Source of the DNA: Methanobacteriota archaeon
Lineage (GTDB): Archaea > Halobacteriota > Bog-38 > Methanoflorentales > Methanoflorentaceae
Length of the DNA: 64,000 nt
NCBI GenBank assembly: GCA_963720465.1
Contig: OY970393.1
Span: 128,001 to 192,000 of the forward strand
Direction: 5' to 3'
Shown piece after piece: positions 39,893 to 61,931 of the stretch (position 1 is its first letter; every line of letters begins with the position of its first letter). Under the pieces are notes generated by a model that did not search any database, was not told the DNA's origin, and worked only from the letters and a program-made list of their open reading frames with translations. A program made the translations under genes and the position numbers.

Positions 39893-41332
39893 TTAGAGTC
39901 TTGAAAAAGGTGTTTCTGGAGAAGGAAACACACCCGATGCCAGGGCGTAAAGCAAGAGTTTATTCTTTTCCCTGAAACGCTTTGTTATCTCGTCTCGACC
40001 AAAACCAAGTTCCGACAACAAGCATACCTCCAAAATCAAATCGAGGCGCCTCACAACAATTGAGAGTTCGAGGCCGCGTGTGACTTTGTGTTTTGGTCTT
40101 TTGGGATCATAGTGCGTGTAATAGTTCCGACCATCCACCACTTTCTTGCTAAACGAAACGGGAGGCTCAAAGCATATAGCCCAAGCAATGTCATCGAAGT
40201 AGTTCATAATTTCCAAAATTCTTCGTAAGAGTGTCATATCTCTTCGCCTCTTATTCCATTGCTTATCATATGGCTGGGCGGAGATTTTGTTAACGACGCT
40301 CAGCAGCTGAGTACTTGCCGCACCGCTGAGCTTATATTTGTTAGCAAAGCGCATGTGGTAAGTTTCTAAGCCTTGAACTAGGCTCAAAAATGAGTGAATG
40401 TTATAGACGCACGGGTTGTGTCTGATGCCGAAATACAAATCAAGAACTGGCTCTAGTAGATCAGCTTTCTCAAACCAATTGCTAAGGGTTTCCTCAAAGT
40501 GGTCACTAATGTCGGGCAGAGTGAAAAGCATCGTGTGGGGCCAAATGTCAGGGACATTACTGGCGAAATGGGGAAGCTGATAGAAAATCTCAATCTTGTT
40601 GAAGGGATCTGTTGCTGACTGCGCTTCAATCGTTATCGGAAAAACCTGTTCGCGAACGGCGAGACTCAGAAAATTGCGTAAGCTGTACAAGACCTCTTCG
40701 TGTGTCGTTAAAAGCACAGGGTCAGGCGTCTCGATGATAACCCGATAAAATTGGGTGATACAGGCTTTTTTGTTTGCCTCGCGATTATTTGGGCGTAGCA
40801 GGAAGGGCCTGATGGACATTTGAAAGCTTTTCGCTGCTTTGAACTGGCGAATTTTAGCATCGAATGTTTTCGGAGATTTGAATCTCACAACACAGTCGTA
40901 ACCATCATCACCACCATACGCGTCAGAAAGATCAATACCGGAGATCGACGCCCATTCATCAAGATGTGTGTAGCTAATCTCTAGCCTGCTGAACTTGATG
41001 TCAGCTTTTGGATAAATGTGGTCGCCGTAGAGTATTGTCTTAGTATGGAAAACAAGTTCTACCGTCATTTCATCGCTTGTAATCTCTTGTGGCCACCCAT
41101 GGCAAAAGCTATCAACCAAGGTTATATACCCGTAGGGAGACTTTCCCAAAATAATCTCTTGTTGGCGTTTGTTCGAGATAACGTGGTTAAATAGCTTTTT
41201 GATATGCTTCTTAAGGCCCGTTACTTGTAAGAAACCGCCGCTTGACGGGGCATATTTTAGCGTACCGCAAAAATCGTCATCCGAGCATCCCGGAAAAGAC
41301 CATGTGCCTTGTACAGCGAATTCCTTAATCAT
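39893..41332 (-). CDS. ApeA-like protein (ApeA N-terminal domain plus HEPN RNase)
   Basis: N-terminal GTW..P......GTL.Y and HLDEW motifs, FLSLVQGLETYH, and the HEPN RxxxxH motif RNYYTH. Confidence 0.8.
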   Translation of the reverse strand: MIKEFAVQGTWSFPGCSDDDFCGTLKYAPSSGGFLQVTGLKKHIKKLFNHVISNKRQQEIILGKSPYGYITLVDSFCHGWPQEITSDEMTVELVFHTKTILYGDHIYPKADIKFSRLEISYTHLDEWASISGIDLSDAYGGDDGYDCVVRFKSPKTFDAKIRQFKAAKSFQMSIRPFLLRPNNREANKKACITQFYRVIIETPDPVLLTTHEEVLYSLRNFLSLAVREQVFPITIEAQSATDPFNKIEIFYQLPHFASNVPDIWPHTMLFTLPDISDHFEETLSNWFEKADLLEPVLDLYFGIRHNPCVYNIHSFLSLVQGLETYHMRFANKYKLSGAASTQLLSVVNKISAQPYDKQWNKRRRDMTLLRRILEIMNYFDDIAWAICFEPPVSFSKKVVDGRNYYTHYDPKRPKHKVTRGLELSIVVRRLDLILEVCLLSELGFGRDEITKRFREKNKLLLYALASGVFPSPETPFSRL

Positions 41333-41778
41333 GGTGATGTTGTCACTGCATTTGCGCTTTGTCAATGGTGCTGTTAACCAACTCTATCAACTTTTCGAAA
41401 TGATCATACTTGTTAGGGCAGGCAGAGCGCGAAAAAGTAGTGATGTGGCCTAAAAAATGACTAGTTATCGAAGAGTGCATTACCACAATATCATATCAGA
41501 CATCCGTTCGTGCTTTTTCTAACGCAATCTAACTACTCTTTTGTGAAAACTAGCAGGGTCAGTATTGTAACGGAACTCAGGCCTCGTCAGTCTTTCTGCC
41601 GCTAACTTAACAGCTTCGCAAGATTTGTCTAATGATAAGCGTGCATTACGATCTCTGCATCCACCCAAATAGAAAAACGCTTTATCTCCCTCGACCATTA
41701 ATACCAGACAATGCCATATCGAGACCTCGCCTCGTACAAGCGCTTTGAAACGCACCTTACCACAAAATGGCCTGAGTT

Positions 41779-43939: not shown

Positions 43940-44532
43940 CAGCGCCTGACCTACATGGCACTTCGTTCCATAAGCAGAATTAATCAACCTGTGACGCCTG
44001 TAAAGCATTATGAGAAACGATAAAGACAGCCATAGCTCTTCGAATCGACTTCATTCCATAACAAGTTTGTTCTAATTTTTTTAAACAACACTAGATCCCA
44101 AATGATAGGTGCCGACGACTGAATACGCACTCGCAGCCGCGCATGATCCCACAATAATTCGGGGGCTTGAGACTAACTCGAATCAAAGATCTATCAAACC
44201 GACGATGTAGGGGGTTCAGATCTCATGAGACTACGATCGTCAATCAAGCGTAAACAAAAAGGCAAGGGTTGAAACAATCGACACGGTAGCGCCTTATTCC
44301 CGGCGAATAGCCCGTCTCGTAGCTTTTCGCTGGTCCAGCAGTTCACGCCCGAGGGCCGTTATTATGTTCGGATAGGCATAAAACCCTTTATCCGCTGCAG
44401 CGATGTTTAGATGCTATGATCAGCTAAGCGCTGAAGAAAAGTGATTGCTGTGCTTATCAGCTCGATTTGTGGCCGCGAACCTTCAAGGCTCGGCGAAAGT
44501 TGAGCTTGTTTAAGCTCTCAATTGAGAAGTTT

Positions 44533-47195: not shown

Positions 47196-47426
47196 AGGCT
47201 AAGTTAGGTTTCTAGATTGCCTCCTTCGCTTCAAACATCTGTACAGGCCGTCGTTGCAAAATCCGAATTTTAGCCGATGAAGGAAAAATCGGCATTAACC
47301 GTTGATACCACCAAAAATAGTGGTCGTAATAGAGAGTGAGTCAGCTCAAGATTGGAGTTGACGCAGAACACGACAGTTGGGATAAATGTTTATTTAAGCA
47401 GACCGTGCTAAAAAAGAGGGATCGGT

Positions 47427-49523
47427 ATGATATCTCAAGAAGCTCAAGCTAGCGTTGGGAACTGGCAGGAAGAAGTAAAAAAGCGTAGATTTGAATTGGG
47501 TTTAGAAGAACAAGATACAATAAAAATTAACCGTATTTGCGAAGAAGTGACGAAGATATGGAAAAAAACCCCCCCTCCTTACCCCTACACGCCTCACGAT
47601 CATACGCATTGTGAACGAGTTGAAGAGAAGATCTACCAACTTCTAACGACTTCAGAACTACAGAAATTCAGCAAGATAGAGCGGTTTTTACTCATTGCTA
47701 GTGCTTGGCTTCACGATATTGGAATGAATCCTTACGCGTTGCGTAAAGACCCCCCTTGGCGTCGAGGAATGGCACGCACAAAGAGTTGGAATGAAGAAAC
47801 TCGAAAGAAGCACAATGAAAGATCCTCAACATTCGTTGAAGAAAAGGCTAAAACGCTTGGTTTGACTGACAAAGATATTAAATATTTAAAAAAGCTTTGC
47901 TATTTCCATCGACATAGAACATATTCAGAACTACAGAAGTTAGATTGGGAAACTGAAGACGATAAAATCCACATCAAACTTCTAGCTGCTTTTTTGAGGT
48001 TAGCAGACGCGCTTCACATACGAGACAGATTCCTTGTTGAACAATTCCAGATTTATGACGCTCTCGGCTTAGATCCCGAAGCAAGGTTTCATTGGTTAAA
48101 AAGCAAATTCGTCCATAGCATTTTAATTGATTCTAAAACGCACAAAATAACAGTTCTTCTAAGAGTACGAAATACAAGTAAAAAATGTGAGAAGTGGATA
48201 AAACCACTAAGAGATCTTTTAGAATTAGAAGCTCAAGATGAATTGGACTCTCTTAAGGACATATTTGCCGAAGGAGCGGAGCTTGGGTTACCAGTCTATC
48301 TGTCTGTTAAGAGTGGCATTCAAAAAAGCAAAATGGAAGAAGAAGAATGGTCAACACTCGACGAGACGTTAAATTACCTTGAATTATTTGAGAGTGTTCT
48401 GAGTCCCAATGCAAGCGCAGTTATTACGAACATATTCAAACAAATTGACCTCTACCTGAATTTGAATGATCCGACTACTGTTGTAGATTATTTAACAGAT
48501 TATGAAAAAGACGTTTTACGCCCCATCTTAGACAAACGTCCTTGTCACGTTTATTTAGCGAAGATAGATCGTTTGTTAATCGATGTTCTTAAAGATGAGG
48601 CTGATGCTACCGAGAAAGTAGAGAGAATCAAAAGTACGGTCCAGAAATGGGAAAATGACAGAGAGAGTGCTTTGGAAACAATCCCAAAAATAGCGTATGG
48701 GACTCTTGCACAGGGCTTTCCAGCACTCCTCTACGGATATAGCGATACAATAGTTAGGTGTTTAGCATATATCCTAAAAGAGCAAAAACAGAGTTTTAAA
48801 GTGTATGTTTGTGAAGGAAGGACGAACACAGAGTACCGCTATAACAATAGGATCGTGTTTTGCGACGGGATCATGTATGCAGAAAAGCTTAAGGAAGCTG
48901 AAAAGACGGTAAACAAAGCTCTTAAACGCAAAAAGGACAACACGCTCAAAATCAATATTCAGTTCGTACCTGATTCCGCTGTTTCAAACCTATTGACGAA
49001 TAAAAAGATATCAATGATACTTTTTGGAGCGAATGGGATTAGTCCAAAGGGCAAAGTTTCGCATAAGCTTGGTCACTTAGCCATCGCAGATATGGCTGCA
49101 GGCGGAAAATACGCTACGCCCATATACGTAATTGCTGAATCAATGAAAATCGGCCTGTTTGAAGAAAAGCCAGATAATCAAAGAGAGAACAATTGGCTTA
49201 CGACTGATGTGCACCAAGAAGACAAATTTGAAAAAATTTTTAACTTATCCGAAGGGCAAGGAATAAAGAACTTACTTTATAATCCACGTGAAGACGTCGT
49301 TCCGCCTGATAGAATCTTGAAAATCATCACAGAAAAAGGCCCTGAAACTCCTCAAGAGATTTGGCGACATTCAGAGGAGGAACTCGAGATGTATAAGACA
49401 TTATCGTATGATGGTGTTGTCGGGATGCTTGACGGCATTGTCGAAATGCTTAAGCAAAACGCTAACTTGTTGACAGGCGGCCAAAGGATTAAGCTACTAA
49501 CTTTTCTAAGTCATCAAATCTAA
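47427..49523 (+). CDS. HD-domain phosphohydrolase fused to an eIF2B/IF-2B-like domain
   Basis: HD part YTPHDHTHCERV, WLHDIGM, RKKHNERS, LRLADAL and HWLK. IF-2B part VYVCEGR, PDSAV, LFGANGI...SHKLGH, PIYVIAESMK and NPREDVVP..I..IITEKG. AT-rich. Confidence 0.8.
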   Translation: MISQEAQASVGNWQEEVKKRRFELGLEEQDTIKINRICEEVTKIWKKTPPPYPYTPHDHTHCERVEEKIYQLLTTSELQKFSKIERFLLIASAWLHDIGMNPYALRKDPPWRRGMARTKSWNEETRKKHNERSSTFVEEKAKTLGLTDKDIKYLKKLCYFHRHRTYSELQKLDWETEDDKIHIKLLAAFLRLADALHIRDRFLVEQFQIYDALGLDPEARFHWLKSKFVHSILIDSKTHKITVLLRVRNTSKKCEKWIKPLRDLLELEAQDELDSLKDIFAEGAELGLPVYLSVKSGIQKSKMEEEEWSTLDETLNYLELFESVLSPNASAVITNIFKQIDLYLNLNDPTTVVDYLTDYEKDVLRPILDKRPCHVYLAKIDRLLIDVLKDEADATEKVERIKSTVQKWENDRESALETIPKIAYGTLAQGFPALLYGYSDTIVRCLAYILKEQKQSFKVYVCEGRTNTEYRYNNRIVFCDGIMYAEKLKEAEKTVNKALKRKKDNTLKINIQFVPDSAVSNLLTNKKISMILFGANGISPKGKVSHKLGHLAIADMAAGGKYATPIYVIAESMKIGLFEEKPDNQRENNWLTTDVHQEDKFEKIFNLSEGQGIKNLLYNPREDVVPPDRILKIITEKGPETPQEIWRHSEEELEMYKTLSYDGVVGMLDGIVEMLKQNANLLTGGQRIKLLTFLSHQI

Positions 49524-49768
49524 GCGCAAGTCGTTGCAAATTCTTCAAAGTCACAGCGGCCTTGTAGATTGGGGTACGCTTTGTTAAGAAAGCGGAGGCC
49601 TAATTAACCCTGGTTTTTATAAGCCGCGAGTCTCGAACAGATCATCGACTTCCAGAACGACGTATAACGGAAAAAATGGGTTCAACATAACTCTTTTTTT
49701 GGCATTTGCCTTATCTCACGCGACTAATAACAACGATTAAGTATGCAGAATAGTCCTTATTCAGCACT

Positions 49769-50107
49769 ATGCTAGCCGCTGAACAATATCCAGGTCTCTT
49801 TTTAGACGGAATGCTGCCCAAGCGTGAGTTGTTACAGATTCACCACAGCAAAATCTCTCTGCACTACGCAAAAGAAGGCTATAGCTATCCTACGATACGG
49901 CTGCCGCATACGTTCTCAATGCTTGCTTGGCTTCCAATAAAGATCTATCAGACCATTCATGAAGGGTCTCTTGCTTTTCTCGTAGTCGTTTCGTCCAAAG
50001 AAAAAGCCGCAAGCAGTCTGAAATCCTCCGTCTTCACACGTCGACAATTATTTGTTATTAAGCTACCGAGGGCTACTAACGAGCATATCAGGAAAGAGTC
50101 TAAGTAA
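49769..50107 (+). CDS. IRLP-motif small protein, copy B, reading through an att-like site
   Basis: ELLQIHHSKISLH.AK.GY.YPTIRLPHTFS is near-identical to the 54707 copy; similarity stops after 50040. Confidence 0.65.
   Translation: MLAAEQYPGLFLDGMLPKRELLQIHHSKISLHYAKEGYSYPTIRLPHTFSMLAWLPIKIYQTIHEGSLAFLVVVSSKEKAASSLKSSVFTRRQLFVIKLPRATNEHIRKESK
50028..50040 (+). repeat. Truncated att-like site containing the tRNA-Val(CAC) anticodon loop (CCGTC-TTCACAC-G)
   Basis: TTCACACG is identical to the anticodon loop plus 1 nt of the tRNA-Val at 63891-63964, and it sits in the same context (AATCCTCCGTCTTCA) as the site at 54966. Confidence 0.55.
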
Positions 50108-54706: not shown

Positions 54707-55012
54707 ATGCTAGCCCCCGAACATTGGTCAGAGCTTTTTTCAAACGGTGCGTATCCAAAAAATGAGCTGCTACAGATCCATCATAGCAAAATCTCGCTTC
54801 ACCGCGCAAAAACTGGTTACGACTACCCAACAATTCGGCTCCCACACACATTCTCGCGACTCACAGGTTTGTCCACCTGAATCTATCAGACCGCTCACGA
54901 GGGAGCGTTGGCTTTTCGCGTGGTCATTTCACGAACAGAAAAAGCCTCAGAAAGTCGCGAATCCTCCGTCTTCATACGGCGAAGGTCGGGCGTTCGAATC
55001 GCCATCCCCTGA
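54707..55012 (+). pseudogene. IRLP-motif small protein, copy C, with a premature TGA (54878), reading into a tRNA-like 3' half
   Basis: After the stop the frame continues IYQTAHEGALAFRVVIS...SSVFIRRRSGVRIAIP, collinear with copy B. Confidence 0.7.
54966..55003 (+). repeat. tRNA-Val-like 3'-half fragment (att-like)
   Basis: CGTCTTCATACGGCGAAGGTCGGGCGTTCGAATCGCC versus tRNA-Val CGCCTTCACACGGCGGAGGTCGCCGGTTCGAATCCGG: 28/37 identical by manual alignment, and the T-arm still pairs. Confidence 0.7.
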
Positions 55013-55040: not shown

Positions 55041-57064
55041 TTACGCTTCCGCTATAGTCGAAATCCCGCGCTCTTTTGAGACCCGAAATATCTGATCTGC
55101 GAAGCTCTCGAGCTCTCGTTCGTGCGAGACGATAATCACCTGTGGACACTCGAGCTCGGTGAGGATATCCTGCACTTTGAGCAGCTGTTCTTTACTGAAG
55201 CCGTCCGTGGGCTCATCAAGGATAAGCAGATTCGACTCCATCGACGTTGCGACCTTGCGCACGATCATATTAAGCGCGAGCCGGTACGCGAGTGCCACGC
55301 TCGTTTTCTCACCGCCACTCAGATAATTCACATTTTGCTCGTAGCCGTCCTGCTCGACAATAATGGAGAAGTCCTCGTCGATGCGCGCGCTCTTTGTTGG
55401 ATCTTTCACCAGCAGCTCAAACCACTGTTGGAAGAACTGATTGAACTCCTGTTGGAACGCGATCATGACGTGCCGTTCAATCGCTTCCAAGGCCTTTATG
55501 AAGTAATCTGCAAGCCAAATCCTATTTTCAGTCAAAAAACGCGCTTTTTTGACGTCGCGCTCCTTTGCTTCAACTTCGCGTTCCAGGGAGGCTACGAGCT
55601 TTTTTTGCTGCTCGACGGTAGCTTCTAGTGACGACACTTTCTTACCGATCCTCGACATGGCGTCGGCCGTTTCGCGTCTTTTGCCCTCTAAGTTTGCCAG
55701 ATCCACGGCGATCTGCTTCATTCGTTCTACTTCATCGCGCGCCTTTCCTAACGACGATCCGAGCGTTGCAACCTCCTGCTCGGCGGTGCGTATTTTTTCC
55801 TCGTTGCGCGCGATTTTCTGTCGTACCATCTCCGCTGGCGCTTGCAGCAGCGCAAGTTTGTCTTGCGACCGGCTGTACGCGTCAAGAGCATTGAGCAGCG
55901 CTTTCGCCTCAGTGAGACCTTTTTCTATGCGTCGATTTGCTGCTGCAGCGTATCCTTTCTGGCCTTTTCAGCTGCGATCTTTTTCGTAAACTGCGCAGCG
56001 TCGGCCTCTCGTCCACACGTTGGGCAGACCCCTTCTGCGCGAATACGCTCGTAATTTCTGAGGGCAGAATCAACAAAAGCAGCTTCCTTCGCACATTTAG
56101 TATGCGATTGATCGAGCGCGTCAATCGATGCTTTGAGCTCGCTCTCTTCTTGCTCAGTCGGCCTTTTGAGCGCTCGCAATCCTTCGATCTCCCCCTCCCG
56201 CGTCGTGAGCTCTCTAGTGGCGTCAGCGAGTTCACGCTGTGCGACCCGGATGTCGTCTTGTGCTCTTTCTATCTGTCGTTCGAGCTGCGGAATTCCTCCC
56301 TCGGCTTGAGCAAGTGCCTCTTTCTGGCCGCGCAAATTTTTAAGTTGCTCATCAAGGGCGTCAAGCTCGCGTTGCAGCGCATCCTCTTCGATCCGTTTGT
56401 GTGCGATCGTCTGTTCGGCGTGGCGGATATCACCACTCAGGGAGAGCACCTCGGCGCGCTTGGTTTCCACGTCTAACGCGGAAGCCTCGAGAATCGCGGC
56501 TCGAGTGTTGCACGCAGTTGAGACGAGCTGAGCGTTATCTCGCGCGATCTTGTAGTCCTCGATTCGGAGCACCTTGTAGAGCGTTTTTAGTCGCTCCTGT
56601 GGATTGAGCGCTAAAATTGCCTTCATCTCCTCTTGAGGGGTGAAGATCGCATAGCGATAGATCAGACTCTGTGCTCGTGGGTCTCGAGGCTCGTTGAACC
56701 TCAGTATCTCCAGGATGCATTCCTTTAGCTCTGCCGGACTGAAACCCGTCACGCCGTTAGGCCCTTCAAGGTGCCCCTCCGCCTGCTGGACGTTGCCGCC
56801 TTTCCGTACGAGCGTCCGGCGCACGATATATTCGTCACCATCGACGGCAAATGCGAGACTAACGGAGCCTTTGGACTCGTTTGTCTTGAGCAGGGAGCCG
56901 CCCTTTTGCGATCCAAGGCCGAAGAGCGCGAATTCGATGGCCATCAGAATGGTAGACTTCCCTGAACCGATGTCGCCTTCAAAGAGCGATATGCCTTGGG
57001 GGAACGCTATCGTCGCCGTCTTATAACTCCTGACGTTTTCAAGTTTAAGCGAGCGTAGTATCAC
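55041..57064 (-). pseudogene. rad50: Rad50/SbcC ATPase split by a 1-nt deletion near 55929 (real or sequencing error)
   Basis: Walker A GDIGSGKS, Q-loop PQEEM and Zn-hook CPTC lie in ORF 55925..57064. Signature LSGGE, LDEPT and VSH lie in ORF 55041..55829, whose frame is open up to 55928. Confidence 0.88.
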
Positions 57065-58323
57065 TTCTCAAAGGCTCCTTTCAGTTGAAGGACTCCGAGC
57101 GCGTCTTCGATCATGCGCGCCTCGTACTCCTTCTTGTTCTCAGTAGCGCTTTTGTCCTCTTTCAGAACCCGTAGTAGTTCAAGGGAGAGATTGACGCCTA
57201 AATCACCCTGGAGCTCAGGAATGTTGGCTTGTACAGTCCCAACGTTCTCCTTGAAGAGCCGTTCTTCGATGACTGTTACATCCTCTCCAGCGACCTTTAT
57301 CGCGGCGTAGTCAGCTGAAGTGAGGCCGCGGCGACCGAGGTGCACGTCGACAGCGCCGCGTTCGTAAAGCAGGTTCTGCAAGTGTACAAAGTCTATATCA
57401 GACGTCTTTCCACCGGATAATTCGCCCCGTATCTTCAATACGACGATCTTACCGTCCACGTCAAGGCCGCCAAATGATTCGGCGAGTGTGTCTTGGGCGC
57501 GCGACGAATTGAGCCCTGTTAGATTATACTCTTTGTACGTGCTCTCGACCAAACCCGTTTCAACGAACTCCACGTCCGTGACCGTTTGATCGAAGCTTAT
57601 GATGTAAAATCCCCGGCGCTCGCCCCTGGCCGTGAACTCAAAATCGCGCCCATAACCAGCGAAAAGCGGTCCGGGGAACACGATCCTGTCGTATCCTGGG
57701 AGGCGGTGCTCTGAGTGCTGATGAACGTGTCCACCGGCGTAGTAGTCAAAACCCTTTGGGAAGAGCGAGATAGGGATTGAGTCCATCCTAGTGAGGTACT
57801 CGGGCTTGAGCTCGTCAATGCCGGAGTGAAAGGCAAAGATCTTGAACCCGTCGAGACATTCGAGATCGTCTCGATCGAGCATGTCGTAGTACTCGCGCTC
57901 TAATCCTATCCGTCGCGCTGAGATACCAACGAGCTTCGCGCCCGTACGCGCGTCTACGACGCACTCGAGTTTGAGCGTGCCGTCGATGACTTGTGGCTTG
58001 ACAATCTTCGTTAGGAGGCCAGCGCTTTCGATCACGTCTATAATGGACGTGCTCGTCGGCGTATAATCATGGCTTCCGTAAATAGCGTAAATCGGTATGC
58101 CGTGTTCGGTAACGTCTCGCATCTTTGCAACGGCTTGCCTTACTGTGTTGAGATCCGAGGGCACCCCGACGTGGAACAGGTCCCCTGAGATGACAATGAA
58201 ATCGACCTTGCGCGTAATGCAAATGTCCATGGCTCGCACAAAGGCGCCGATCTCCAACTCCGCCATCTTCCCGTGTCGGTTTGCACCGAGATGGACGTCT
58301 GCCATATGGGCAAATTGATGCAT
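57061..58323 (-). CDS. mre11: Mre11/SbcD nuclease
   Basis: Motifs ADVHLG, SGDLF, GSHD, FH, GGHVH and FPG. Confidence 0.92.
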   Translation of the reverse strand: MHQFAHMADVHLGANRHGKMAELEIGAFVRAMDICITRKVDFIVISGDLFHVGVPSDLNTVRQAVAKMRDVTEHGIPIYAIYGSHDYTPTSTSIIDVIESAGLLTKIVKPQVIDGTLKLECVVDARTGAKLVGISARRIGLEREYYDMLDRDDLECLDGFKIFAFHSGIDELKPEYLTRMDSIPISLFPKGFDYYAGGHVHQHSEHRLPGYDRIVFPGPLFAGYGRDFEFTARGERRGFYIISFDQTVTDVEFVETGLVESTYKEYNLTGLNSSRAQDTLAESFGGLDVDGKIVVLKIRGELSGGKTSDIDFVHLQNLLYERGAVDVHLGRRGLTSADYAAIKVAGEDVTVIEERLFKENVGTVQANIPELQGDLGVNLSLELLRVLKEDKSATENKKEYEARMIEDALGVLQLKGAFEK

Positions 58324-58334
58324 CGTTGAAAGCC

Positions 58335-59930
58335 TCAGACAACTCTTCGGTTGGGTTTTAGGTGAATGTCGTGCTTGTCTTCAGGGGTATCTCTAGTGGG
58401 GTATTCTGCCACGTAGTCGTCAAAGAGTGGTACCTGGATAGGAATTGCAAATTTGGTGAATATGCTGCTTACGATAGCCTCCCCTTTGTCCAAACTACCA
58501 ATCGTCGCGTAGTCCTCCTTGAGGTCTTGTGCGGCGCTACTGATGATCGCGTTTCGTTCGCTCGCCATCTCGTTTCCGAAGATGATCTTAGTATTCAGGT
58601 TTGCTAAGACCGTAGTGGGGATAACGCTCGTTAACTGGGTAATCGCCACGAGGCCGATCTTAAATTTCCTTCCTTCGCGCGCGACGGTGCTGTACGTGGT
58701 ATCGCCCCCTTGACTTAGCACATCGGCGCCGAGCACGCGCGGGGCCTCCTCAATCACGATGCTTACCACGGGCTTGTCCTCGAGTTTGGAAACGCCGCTG
58801 CTCCCGGTCTCTTGTTTGTACCTTTGATACTTCGTCAAAATCTCGTTTATGACCAGGCTTCCGATAAGGAGCTCAGCTTTGTCGCTAAGCCTCGACGTAT
58901 CCACGACAACGATCATCCCGCTTTCCAGAGCTGCGATCATTTCGCTGAGCGTCGACTCTCCTGAGGTGGCGCTGAAGGCTCGGTTGTAACAGATAAGGTC
59001 TCCTTGCTCGTTGACGTCTAAACCCAATGCCGTCTTAAACTTCCTTTGAAGGACAGCTGCGGTCATTGGGGCGACGTTTTCAGGTCGCTCGTCTTTAAAG
59101 ATGGCTGCGATCCACTGTTTATCCTTTTTATGGGCGAAGTAATAGCCGTACAGCGCTTCAGACTGCGCGTCAGTGAGGTTGACAAGCTCCTCAATATGCC
59201 ACGGCATTATCGATTTTAGGTTGATAACAAGCGTACTTGTTCCCGCGGGGGCCGCAAGCGAGTAGTACTTTATCTTATCTTTCGCGTCAGGGTGATTGCT
59301 GAGGCCGAGTTCTTTGCCCCTGCCGCCGTAATACTCGTCGTGCGCGTCGAGGACCAACACTCCGAGGTCGTCGTCGTTTACCACGCTCCACAGCAGAACC
59401 TTCACAAGGTTGCTTTTTCCTCTGCCCGTCGTCGCGGGGATGAGCACGTGGTGGGTGAACAAATCCTGTGCGTTGAGCCTCACGGGCACGTCGAGAACGT
59501 TCGATCCGCTCCGCACCTTGCCGAGGAACGCCGTGTTCTCAGGTACCTCCATGAACTGAAGGTCCTCGTTAATTACGTGCCGCACCGAGGAGAAAAAGTC
59601 AGGCAGCGCCTTTGGAATCGTGACCTGCGTTCCCGAAACCAAGGCGACCGCTCGAGCTTCGGCCAAAACATAGTTCCGCAGACTTGGATCGAAGAACTCC
59701 AGACTGCCTCCGCGACCTTCCAGTTCTAGTCCAGCAGTGAGTTCGAGCAGGTTCTGAGAAACCTGACTGCCATAGAACAGGTTGTGAACCTGAAGGATAA
59801 GCGAACCACCTTCGCCGCTTTCTGCAACCAAAAGATTTCCCAGCTCTATTTTCGCGTCAGTCTTCTCTCTGATAAGGATATGTGCCACCTTGCCGGCGAT
59901 GACTTGGCCGACGATCTCCAATTCTTCCAT
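58335..59930 (-). CDS. herA: HerA DNA translocase
   Basis: HAS-barrel N-terminus; motifs [26 protein letters not shown] and AREGRKF.IGL..ITQ. Confidence 0.92.
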
Positions 59931-59935
59931 GCGTG

Positions 59936-61047
59936 TTACCCCAATGTGTTTAAGAGGCTATGAGCATCAGTAGCCTTGACGTGCCGGTAAAACTTCTCCC
60001 ACTTCCCCATCGTGGCCATCTGCGAGCGCAGTATGGTGTAATAATGCTCGCGCTCGGAACTCGTTACTCGCGCAAAGCGGTCGGCGTCGATGAGCCCATA
60101 CGGGTATCCCGGGAACGTGTAATCCGTTGAATTTCGCACGAGCTGCGTGAGAATCTCGCTGAGCGCACGCTCATCAAGTGATTGAAATTGATCTCTTTGG
60201 ATCTCGAGTCGGAATATGCGCTCTGAAATCGCGTTGAGCTTTACGCCGAGTATGAACACATAGTGATCCTTGTTCGTCGCGTCCGCTATCGGGTAGTACC
60301 ATTCTGAGATAATGCCTTTTTCAGACGAGAGCTTGTCAAGCGCGCCGAGCAGCGAATAGCCCGTGTCAGTGAAAAGAGCGCTCGTCTTAGAAAGTCCTGC
60401 GAGAACGACCCCTTTCTTCTGTGCCGCCTGGCTGAGCTCGTTCAAATACTCGTACTCATTCGGAAACGCCGTCTGAAGGGTGCCATCGAGCACTATCACG
60501 TCGCCAGCAACGAGCTCGTTTTCAACAACGCTCTTTGCCAGCACGAGCTCTGAGAATCGTCGCGAGATAGAGCCGACTCGATAGATGTCCGCACGCTGAT
60601 TTCCGACGGTGATCGACCGATCCATCGAGCTAAACGAGAGATCACGTTCTCGCGGGAGAATGGTCTCTTCATCGGAGAGCGGGACAAGCGTGGTGTGTAC
60701 TGGATCTCTCCTCTGTCGAAGTCGGAGAACGTCGCTGCGAAGAACTCGACCCGCTTGGGGATGGACCTTTCGGGTATCCTTGTGTTTCCGTTCCAAACGC
60801 CAAAATAGACCCGGTTGAGTTGGACAGAAAAGTTGGGCGCTCCTAGTATCTCTTGATTGCCGCCATCAACGAACGCCGTTTTTTTGTCGGAATCGAGGCG
60901 TTGGATGATCTTGAATCCGCTAGGCGTGAGTGGGAAAGGCTGTACCCCTCGTTCAGGGAAAAAGGGGTTGCCTATCCTCTCGTCGTCTAAGTGGGAGTCT
61001 AGGCGTTCGATGAGCTCGCCAGCGACTTGTGAAGTTTCCTTCTTCAT
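59936..61047 (-). pseudogene. nurA: NurA nuclease split by a 1-nt deletion near 60696 (real or sequencing error)
   Basis: AFVDGG lies in the upstream frame. RRFSE, LDGTL, GLSKTS and PGYPYGLIDADRFARV lie in the downstream frame. Confidence 0.85.
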
Positions 61048-61604: not shown

Positions 61605-61931
61605 ATGCCCTATGCAGACCCCGACCGGCGTCGTGAATACGACAAGGAATACAAGCAGATGGTGCGGGTCCAGGGACGGACAAAAAAAGGCATGGAAACC
61701 CGTCTAACCGCCCTTGAAATTAAAGAGGCTGAAGACCTGCGCGGCCTCGTCAACGAAGTTGTCGATGAGGCACGAAACGCCGATAGCTCTTCTTTACCGC
61801 TTGAGGCCAAGTTGCGAATCAAGTTACGGGCCGTGGAGATCGGCCTTCGGGTCATTGAGATCACGAATCACGAGCGACGGATAGCTGCGCTCGAGGACAA
61901 ATCCCATGGAGAGACACGAACCTCGAATTAG
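61605..61931 (+). CDS. Putative terminase small subunit-like helical protein
   Basis: Overlaps the terL start; helical, with a C-terminal ERRIAALE coil. Assignment is mainly positional. Confidence 0.5.
   Translation: MPYADPDRRREYDKEYKQMVRVQGRTKKGMETRLTALEIKEAEDLRGLVNEVVDEARNADSSSLPLEAKLRIKLRAVEIGLRVIEITNHERRIAALEDKSHGETRTSN

Follow-up and report, generated by a model that had tools for sequence, protein, structure and literature searches.

The window analysed here is a stretch of 64,000 nucleotides of contig OY970393.1 (assembly GCA_963720465.1, positions 128,001 to 192,000) from a methane-cycling archaeon of the Methanobacteriota, and the gene under study lies at 47427-49523 of it, on the forward strand. 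It encodes an HD-CE domain with predicted phosphohydrolase activity fused to a putative pseudo-isomerase domain of the IF-2B fold. This fusion is a large unnamed family. Its architecture was described neither in the literature searched (supplementary files were outside the scope) nor by any model of PADLOC-DB 2.0, as expected from the first-pass annotation of this DNA, made from the letters alone, which knew of no such system. The following features were assigned to the gene and its flanks:

47427..49523 (+): whole gene, predicted HD-CE phosphohydrolase joined to an IF-2B-fold pseudo-isomerase (list of open reading frames, Pfam, AlphaFold2)
47586..48218 (+): HD-CE domain, residues 54-264 (Pfam PF24391)
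48339..49391 (+): complete IF-2B fold, residues about 305-655, with a helical N-subdomain and a Rossmann-like C-subdomain (Foldseek against PDB, profile against PDB)
48726..48743 (+): LLYGYS, residues 434-439, with Gly437 at the catalytic Cys position and Ser439 equivalent to the 5-phosphate-binding Ser (alignment to 5yfj and 5yft)
48834..48866 (+): family-specific insert of 11 residues, YRYNNRIVFCD, residues 470-480 (gap in the isomerase alignments)
49026..49076 (+): GANGISPKGKVSHKLGH, residues 534-550, with Asn536 in place of the catalytic Asp and His546 in place of the sugar-binding Asn214 (alignments)
49146..49148 (+): Lys574, equivalent to the 5-phosphate-binding Lys240 of the isomerase (alignment)
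47389..47419 (+): promoter-like TTTATTTAA (47389-47397) and GAGG (47416-47419) upstream of the ATG (putative, from reading the sequence)
49613..49701 (+): oligo-T tracts 3' of the stop codon, T5 near 49613 and T7 near 49695, candidate archaeal terminators (putative, from reading the sequence)

According to the open reading frame (ORF) list and the translation, the gene is a single ORF of 698 amino acids with an ATG start. It looks monocistronic and seems to stand alone, since the TATA-like TTTATTTAA and the GAGG, located 8-11 nt 5' of the ATG, precede it and the T-tracts follow its stop codon. The G+C content over 47-50 kb is 0.39-0.42, compared with about 0.49-0.56 in most of the window, so that both the single gene and the AT-rich composition described in the first pass were borne out. 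An assembly chimera was also considered, and it was rejected because there are 71 full-length copies in independent loci and the AlphaFold2 model packs as one protein.

Regarding the N-terminal half, Pfam assigned residues 54-264 to HD-CE (PF24391) with 102.6 bits against a curated cut-off of 27 (expectation value, E, of 3.9e-29). In the family alignment of 45 sequences, the HD metal ligands H57, H61, H129, H161 and D194 are present in all members, and H96 and D97 in 44, the sole exception being a gap. Therefore, the intact metal ligands that had been noticed from the sequence were confirmed; the metal site is intact as judged by this alignment, and phosphohydrolase activity is predicted. When the region was modelled separately (residues 20-302), the predicted local distance difference test (pLDDT) was 92.9, and the closest solved folds were the C-terminal domains of PPX/GppA (E 2.6e-4), with class I cyclic-nucleotide phosphodiesterases next (E about 1e-2). 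These structural matches are weak overall, with E values from 2.6e-4 to 3e-2 and template modelling (TM) scores by query of 0.33-0.47. The comparison of the HD profile with the PDB, which uses the sequence only, likewise gave weak matches to PPX, phosphodiesterases and YhaM, together with spurious designed repeat proteins. The only PADLOC-DB match of the fusion was RT_UG24, weak (E 1.1e-5) and located over the HD region.

The C-terminal half matched IF-2B (PF01008) in Pfam with 67.6 bits against a cut-off of 22.4 (E 1.4e-18). The full-length AlphaFold2 model, for which the family alignment was the input, reached a pLDDT of 87.8 and a predicted TM score of 0.83, so that structure prediction, suggested in the first pass as a check, confirmed both domains. 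In Foldseek against the PDB, this half aligned over about 340-370 columns to eIF2B alpha and delta and to ribose-1,5-bisphosphate isomerases, with E values between about 2e-12 and 5e-11 and TM scores by target of 0.56-0.75, and positions 300-607 of the family profile matched isomerase residues 14-309 in the comparison with the PDB (hits from 4.8e-20). Since about 350 columns are aligned to these proteins, the domain is a whole IF-2B fold and not a fragment, which agrees with the complete fold claimed at first.

The best PDB match of the family profile was 5yft, which is the P. horikoshii isomerase with the D204N substitution (74.8 bits), and the wild type (5yfj) gave 70.5 bits. In these alignments LLYGYS lies on IMTHCHS and GAN lies on GAD; therefore, Gly437 corresponds to Cys135 and Asn536 to Asp204, the two catalytic residues (isomerase numbering is that of P. 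horikoshii, and ligand roles are those given in part of PMC5789824). Both replacements are found in 45 of 45 family members, in accordance with the LYGYS and GAN first read at these positions, and GAN also aligns to the GAD of B. subtilis MtnA. The residues that hold the 5-phosphate, Ser137 and Lys240, are kept as Ser439 and Lys574 in all 45 sequences. The full set of 1-phosphate ligands (Arg22, Arg65, Gln166 and Lys215) was not found, and only Arg65 is kept family-wide (Arg371, with Arg in 40 and Lys in 5 of the 45). Arg22 is replaced by Pro327 (Pro in 33/45), Gln166 by Glu469 at a position that is variable in the family, and Lys215, which contacts both the 1-phosphate and the sugar, corresponds to Lys547 in the window protein and to Thr (25), Ser (10) or Gly (7) in the family. 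The sugar ligand Asn214 has become His546 in 45/45. Directly after the position of Gln166 comes the insert, residues 470-480, which has no counterpart in the five printed isomerase alignments and in which N474 is conserved in 43/45 and D480 in 45/45. Altogether, G437, S439, D480, N536, H546, G549, K574, R586, W590 and N619 are invariant in the pocket region.

Two residues of the window protein depart from its relatives: Asn467, where 42 of the 45 members have Lys, and the Lys547 mentioned above, which is the ancestral isomerase residue where most relatives have Thr or Ser.

Judging from the sequence, the domain is almost certainly not a ribose-1,5-bisphosphate or a methylthioribose-1-phosphate isomerase, because the catalytic pair is replaced and both NCBIfam models score far below their cut-offs: TIGR00511, the equivalog of the former enzyme, gave 41.3 bits against 314.1, and TIGR00512, of the latter, 32 bits against 279. 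It should be noted that, according to the part of PMC5789824 that covers these proteins, the C135S and D204N mutants of the Pyrococcus isomerase are inactive and still hold ribose-1,5-bisphosphate, and Ala or Gly occupies the position of the catalytic Cys in eIF2B alpha. The conservation pattern indicates that the pocket is under strong constraint, with its 5-phosphate half kept and its 1-phosphate and sugar half rebuilt, and that it looks suited to a ribose 5-phosphate bearing a different group at C1.

Moreover, when two copies of residues 300-698 were modelled together, a symmetric pairing through the Rossmann-like subdomain was predicted. Its interaction prediction score from aligned errors (ipSAE) was 0.78 (0.76-0.80 between runs), compared with 0.00 for the best control; contacts agreed by at least 97% between runs and the partner pLDDT was at least 81. 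Residues 473-476 and 479 of the insert lie within this predicted interface. In all, 20 of 30 proteins solved as same-chain pairs reach the ipSAE mark applied, compared with 1 of 23 single-chain structures, and passing it may reflect mere likeness here because IF-2B dimers have already been solved. According to these models, the protein probably dimerises via its IF-2B domain, like its relatives.

Concerning the size of the family, a word-indexed search returned 78 matches, 56 of them annotated with both domains. An exhaustive profile search gave 10309 matches at E<=1e-3, 3578 at <=1e-10 and 514 representatives at <=1e-30; the 150 best matches listed are all at <=4.6e-101 and most of them cover the whole profile. 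Among the 130 loci that were fetched and the window, the full fusion was found in 71 ORFs, which form 54-55 groups at 90% identity. Their hosts, as given by the genome records, include Methanothrix, Zixibacteria, Dehalococcoidia, Gammaproteobacteria, Flavobacteriales, Planctomycetota, Syntrophaceae, Acidobacteriota, Desulfobacterales and Bacillota. In the ESM Atlas there is one cluster, with the automatic name 'HD-CE/Initiation factor 2 subunit family domain-containing protein'. The same resource holds a fungal (Ascomycota) cluster of NUDIX plus IF-2B, an independent fusion of a hydrolase with this fold.

The source genome (one contig of 2.31 Mb, 91% complete, encoding McrA) has one copy of the fusion. 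The fusion was not found in any of 17 genomes from its own genus or of 6 from the sister genus, which makes 0 of 23 for the taxonomic family. Among 400 other genomes sampled from the phylum, 16 gave a match at E<=1e-30 and only two of these (G038 and G311) reach the IF-2B half, the copy in G038 carrying two in-frame stops. Three pattern matches were obtained in viral contigs, none of them a relative, which bears neither way on a role in defence. The gene is accessory, mobile and hypervariable, and it is proposed to have been acquired horizontally as part of an accessory pool of conflict-related genes. The source genome also has one other gene of the IF-2B family, and only one (G000:C1:244587-244970, minus strand, an ORF of 354 amino acids), which is presumably an ordinary isomerase or an aIF2B-type protein.

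The first-pass annotation had named homologs in conserved metabolic operons as a finding that would speak against it, and this was encountered in part: the fusion lies beside a fructose-1,6-bisphosphate (FBP) aldolase/phosphatase (FBPase) in 7 of about 54 distinct loci, with RuBisCO also near in 3 of the 7. In the loci of the Methanothrix type, the fusion is located between both genes. FBPase_3 follows the fusion directly on the same strand, after 20-55 bp in L001, L052, L053, L081 and L018 and after 227 bp in L063, whose FBPase is just 43% identical to those of the other FBPase-adjacent loci. FBPase is directly upstream of the fusion in L077 and nearby in L005/L060 and L075, and RuBisCO is next to the fusion in L001/L052, L005/L060 and L081. 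In L018 the fusion is truncated and RuBisCO is fragmented. At the Methanothrix-type site, the flanking RuBisCO and FBPase genes are 86-100% identical between loci, whereas the fusion alleles between them share 25-42%. In a FastTree tree of 54 representatives (600 columns, without the L018 fragment, midpoint-rooted, support values not inspected), these alleles do not group together but are spread over different clades among bacterial sequences, and one of them (L005/L060) is inverted and carries a trypsin domain and Trypco1. On these sequence comparisons, the Methanothrix site is read here as a variable slot with allele replacement, typical of conflict genes, rather than as a metabolic operon, because the alleles are so divergent between near-identical flanks, because they are polyphyletic and because one comes with trypsin and Trypco1. 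The source genome gave no match to RuBisCO, and its FBPase is about 495 kb away from the fusion.

The survey of architectures and neighbourhoods proposed in the first pass yielded a patchy picture. All-against-all clustering of the neighbours in 130 loci revealed no universal partner gene. The commonest Pfam families among 139 neighbours from 55 distinct loci were Radical_SAM (5), FBPase_3 (4), TIR_2 (4) and ABC_tran (3). Some links to proteases, TIR and metallophosphoesterases did appear. In L005/L060 the fusion carries an N-terminal Trypsin_2 and the Trypco1 gene is 1 bp upstream; a caspase is fused N-terminally in L129, and a separate caspase gene lies upstream in L094. An N-terminal Metallophos is present in L008 and in 3 of 9 long representatives that were scanned, and another 2 of the 9 have Trypsin_2. 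TIR_2 genes that match ThsB-type PADLOC models abut the fusion in one monophyletic clade (L011, L016 and L093), WYL and Cas3 are near it in L010 and L082, and SIR2 and ThsA-type matches were also found among the neighbours of the family. Most members, the one in the window included, are solitary genes, with neither a signal generator nor a further effector close by.

In the window, synteny with two genomes of the same genus is kept up to 38579 and resumes at 61605, leaving 23 kb between; the corresponding stretch is about 14.9 kb in one of them (G011) and about 6.9 kb in the other (G002), with different cargo. The region 38579-61605 is therefore a species-variable hotspot. At its left edge, 6 kb upstream of the fusion, there is an ApeA-like gene of 490 amino acids (39893-41365, minus strand) with the Pfam domains ApeA_NTD1 and HEPN_Apea, which matches the PADLOC models PDC-S58 (a candidate system, 225 bits) and Cas13-ApeA (112 bits). 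The island also holds a glycoside-hydrolase-like gene, an FkbM methyltransferase and an apparently accessory NurA-HerA-Mre11-Rad50 cluster (55041-60796, minus strand) with PADLOC matches to the mad3/LmuB and HerA/mad8 models. Only one of the five related genomes searched gave a 93% match to the Mre11 of this cluster, the other four giving matches of 24-27% or just a short 59% fragment. The Rad50-like gene of the cluster is broken into two ORFs (55925-57064 and 55041-55829). No TIR was found among the window neighbours that were scanned, nor an adjacent signal generator as in Thoeris. The location among defence genes, as it was described from the sequence alone, holds in part, with one clear defence-type gene, the ApeA-like one, and a 23-kb non-syntenic stretch around the fusion.

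The att scars described in the same annotation did not stand up. Direct repeats of about 100 nt that have diverged to 75% identity lie at 49943-50044 and 54881-54982, with a weaker copy at 44185-44212. They overlap a small ORF (49769-50107) that matches the G011 hotspot with 60% over 70 amino acids. There is no tRNA in the island and no integrase family among the 10 island ORFs scanned with Pfam. Att sites were thus rejected because there is no tRNA, no integrase and no clean flanking repeats.

Regarding the function, the reading preferred here, which is given about an even chance of being correct, is that the protein is a ligand-switched HD effector or phosphohydrolase used in biological conflict, that is, a sensor-effector for defence. 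Our inferences about ligand binding and the ligand itself, about what the HD domain hydrolyses, how the two domains are coupled and whether the protein acts in defence could be arranged as follows. The pseudo-isomerase domain would bind, most likely without converting it, a 5-phosphoribosyl compound with a non-phosphate group at C1, since the 5-phosphate half of the pocket is kept, the catalytic residues are lost and the 1-phosphate half is rebuilt. Candidate ligands could be a nucleotide, an ADP-ribose derivative or a related metabolite linked to infection. In a protein that probably dimerises through its IF-2B domain, the closure of the pocket driven by the ligand would switch the N-terminal HD-CE domain, which could then hydrolyse a phosphoester substrate, nucleotides or nucleic acid, so that replication of the invader would stop. 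A more specific version, possible though doubtful, takes the IF-2B fold as an immune receptor for a 5-phosphoribosyl signal, which would be an ADP-ribose derivative made by TIR in the TIR-linked clade and a nucleotide metabolite born of infection in the stand-alone forms, and which would switch HD-CE or the fused protease or metallophosphoesterase. The defence role claimed at first is plausible from the comparative context, and the metabolic neighbourhoods of some members count partly against it.

Several observations weigh against the defence reading. The HD-CE domain has no close solved relative in the PDB fold comparison, and its substrate class is not narrowed by it. Most neighbours in the family are ordinary genes, with defence-type matches a minority by raw counts. 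Furthermore, the FBPase-adjacent loci span three clades of the fusion tree, a possible link to sugar-bisphosphate metabolism for which this adjacency is the strongest evidence. If so, the protein could be a metabolic or regulatory enzyme whose pseudo-isomerase domain senses ribose-1,5-bisphosphate, ribulose-1,5-bisphosphate, fructose-1,6-bisphosphate or phosphoribosyl pyrophosphate (PRPP) and whose HD domain dephosphorylates a related metabolite or nucleotide, tuning the flux around RuBisCO and gluconeogenesis, in sugar-bisphosphate or nucleotide-salvage metabolism. Apart from the six loci with FBPase_3 directly downstream and the RuBisCO neighbours already described, this account can draw on the origin of the domain, which descends from the isomerase supplying type III RuBisCO, and on its kept 5-phosphate ligands. 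It nevertheless seems unlikely: the source genome has no RuBisCO match and a distant FBPase, the fusion was found in none of 23 genomes of its taxonomic family, about 47 of the 54 distinct loci have unrelated neighbours, and the 1-phosphate ligands that a bisphosphate requires are mostly lost. The alleles at the FBPase site are also polyphyletic and far more divergent than their flanks, and one is inverted and accompanied by trypsin and Trypco1. Were the link functional, the fusion would be a previously unknown regulator of archaeal sugar-bisphosphate metabolism.

The added domains could also be seen as the real effectors. The fusion would then be a signal-degrading or regulatory module, in which the IF-2B-like pocket captures a second messenger derived from nucleotides and the HD domain hydrolyses it, as an off-switch of the ring-nuclease or phosphodiesterase kind, and the attached protease, TIR or metallophosphoesterase would act on the target. 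This would fit trypsin, caspase and Metallophos placed N-terminal to an otherwise complete HD-IF-2B core, the TIR genes that abut one clade, and the cyclic-nucleotide phosphodiesterases as the nearest solved HD folds after PPX/GppA. However, those structural matches are the weak ones given above, and an off-switch would have nothing to switch in most members because they stand alone, which makes this option distinctly improbable. The invariant His546, His550, Asp480, Tyr436 and Tyr438, a further point against a receptor, could serve a new catalysis and not binding alone. The IF-2B-like domain would then still be an enzyme, with new chemistry through these residues, and the protein would be bifunctional. 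The ten pocket-region residues at 45/45 are unusually conserved, and the fungal NUDIX cluster demonstrates that enzyme fusions of a hydrolase with IF-2B exist. But C135S and D204N each abolish isomerisation in the Pyrococcus enzyme, according to part of PMC5789824, and a pathway enzyme would not be expected to show such patchiness, hypervariability and fusion to effectors; consequently, this possibility is considered very unlikely.

Comparing the fusion with known systems, the ribose-1,5-bisphosphate isomerases (P. horikoshii PH0208 and Thermococcus kodakarensis; 5yfj, 5yft and 3a11) are the best match of the C-terminal half by profile and by fold. Both share the IF-2B fold of two subdomains, the Ser and Lys that hold the 5-phosphate, Arg65 and the C-subdomain dimer, predicted in the fusion. 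The fusion differs in the changes of Cys to Gly and Asp to Asn, in the altered positions of Arg22, Asn214, Lys215 and Gln166, in the 11-residue insert and in the N-terminal HD, and its natural sequence resembles the engineered D204N mutant that traps the substrate. The eIF2B alpha, beta and delta subunits also use the IF-2B fold non-catalytically for binding, with Ala or Gly at the Cys position of eIF2B alpha, as stated in the part of PMC5789824 on this subunit. Judging by PDB titles (7kma and 7kmf), eIF2B alpha has been solved with a bound ligand, one entry being titled 'Sugar phosphate activation of the stress sensor eIF2B'. Unlike these subunits, the fusion has no link to translation factors, carries the HD domain, has GAN where eIF2B alpha has GAE, and belongs to a prokaryotic, patchy and mobile family.

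In Thoeris, the sensor-effector ThsA acts downstream of the TIR protein ThsB and reads a nucleotide signal. The fusion is similar in joining a ligand-binding domain, here a putative one, to a predicted degradative effector, and one of its clades adjoins ThsB-type TIR genes. It differs in that an IF-2B sensor with an HD-CE effector is in no PADLOC model and the window gene is without a TIR partner. Another parallel is that of the protease-Pepco/Trypco modules, to which L005/L060 are similar, with Trypco1 upstream of Trypsin_2-HD-CE-IF-2B; it applies to some members only and not to the window gene. Trypco1/2 (Pepco) are described in part of bioRxiv 10.1101/2025.11.14.688446 as dormant death effectors that a linked protease sets free. 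eIF2B and IF-2B are absent from the main text of that preprint and from the main text of Kaur et al. 2020 (PMC7159879), supplements being outside the scope. As for other HD-CE (PF24391) proteins, some consist of this domain by itself and others combine it with HATPase_c_3 (and iHD-CE, PF24401), a methyltransferase or RelA/SpoT-type domains; none of these has IF-2B, and no characterised architecture with HD-CE was found in the literature searched.

If the defence reading is correct, IF-2B would be a new sensor fold and HD-CE a barely studied effector in prokaryotic immunity, and several hundred sequence clusters across archaea and bacteria would gain a testable function. There would also be an evolutionary parallel, in which a sugar-phosphate isomerase lost its catalysis and came to sense metabolites, here as in eukaryotic eIF2B. 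Should the doubtful immune-receptor version hold, prokaryotes would have an equivalent of the way in which eIF2B senses sugar phosphates during the stress response of eukaryotes, and the fusion would add a new class to the signal receptors CARF, SAVED, SLOG and Macro. The Methanothrix locus, with divergent alleles between near-identical flanks, could serve as a natural experiment on diversifying selection in a methanogen.

Finally, some minor forms and associated genes were observed in the family. In L105 (919-1893 and 1890-3422, with a 4-bp overlap), L071, L110, L113 and L019, HD-CE and IF-2B come from two adjacent ORFs, one for each half, which may be genuine split forms or frameshifts. HD-CE-only proteins of the Bathyarchaeia type, of about 415 amino acids, are found in L024, L025, L027, L028, L030, L112, L115 and L117, each with a conserved downstream partner of about 210 amino acids. 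In addition, the 3' end of divergent members overlaps a conserved small gene on the other strand, whose product of about 122-140 amino acids has no Pfam match (L116 3627-3995, L130 2626-3027, L129 8007-8429, L036, L126 and L127).

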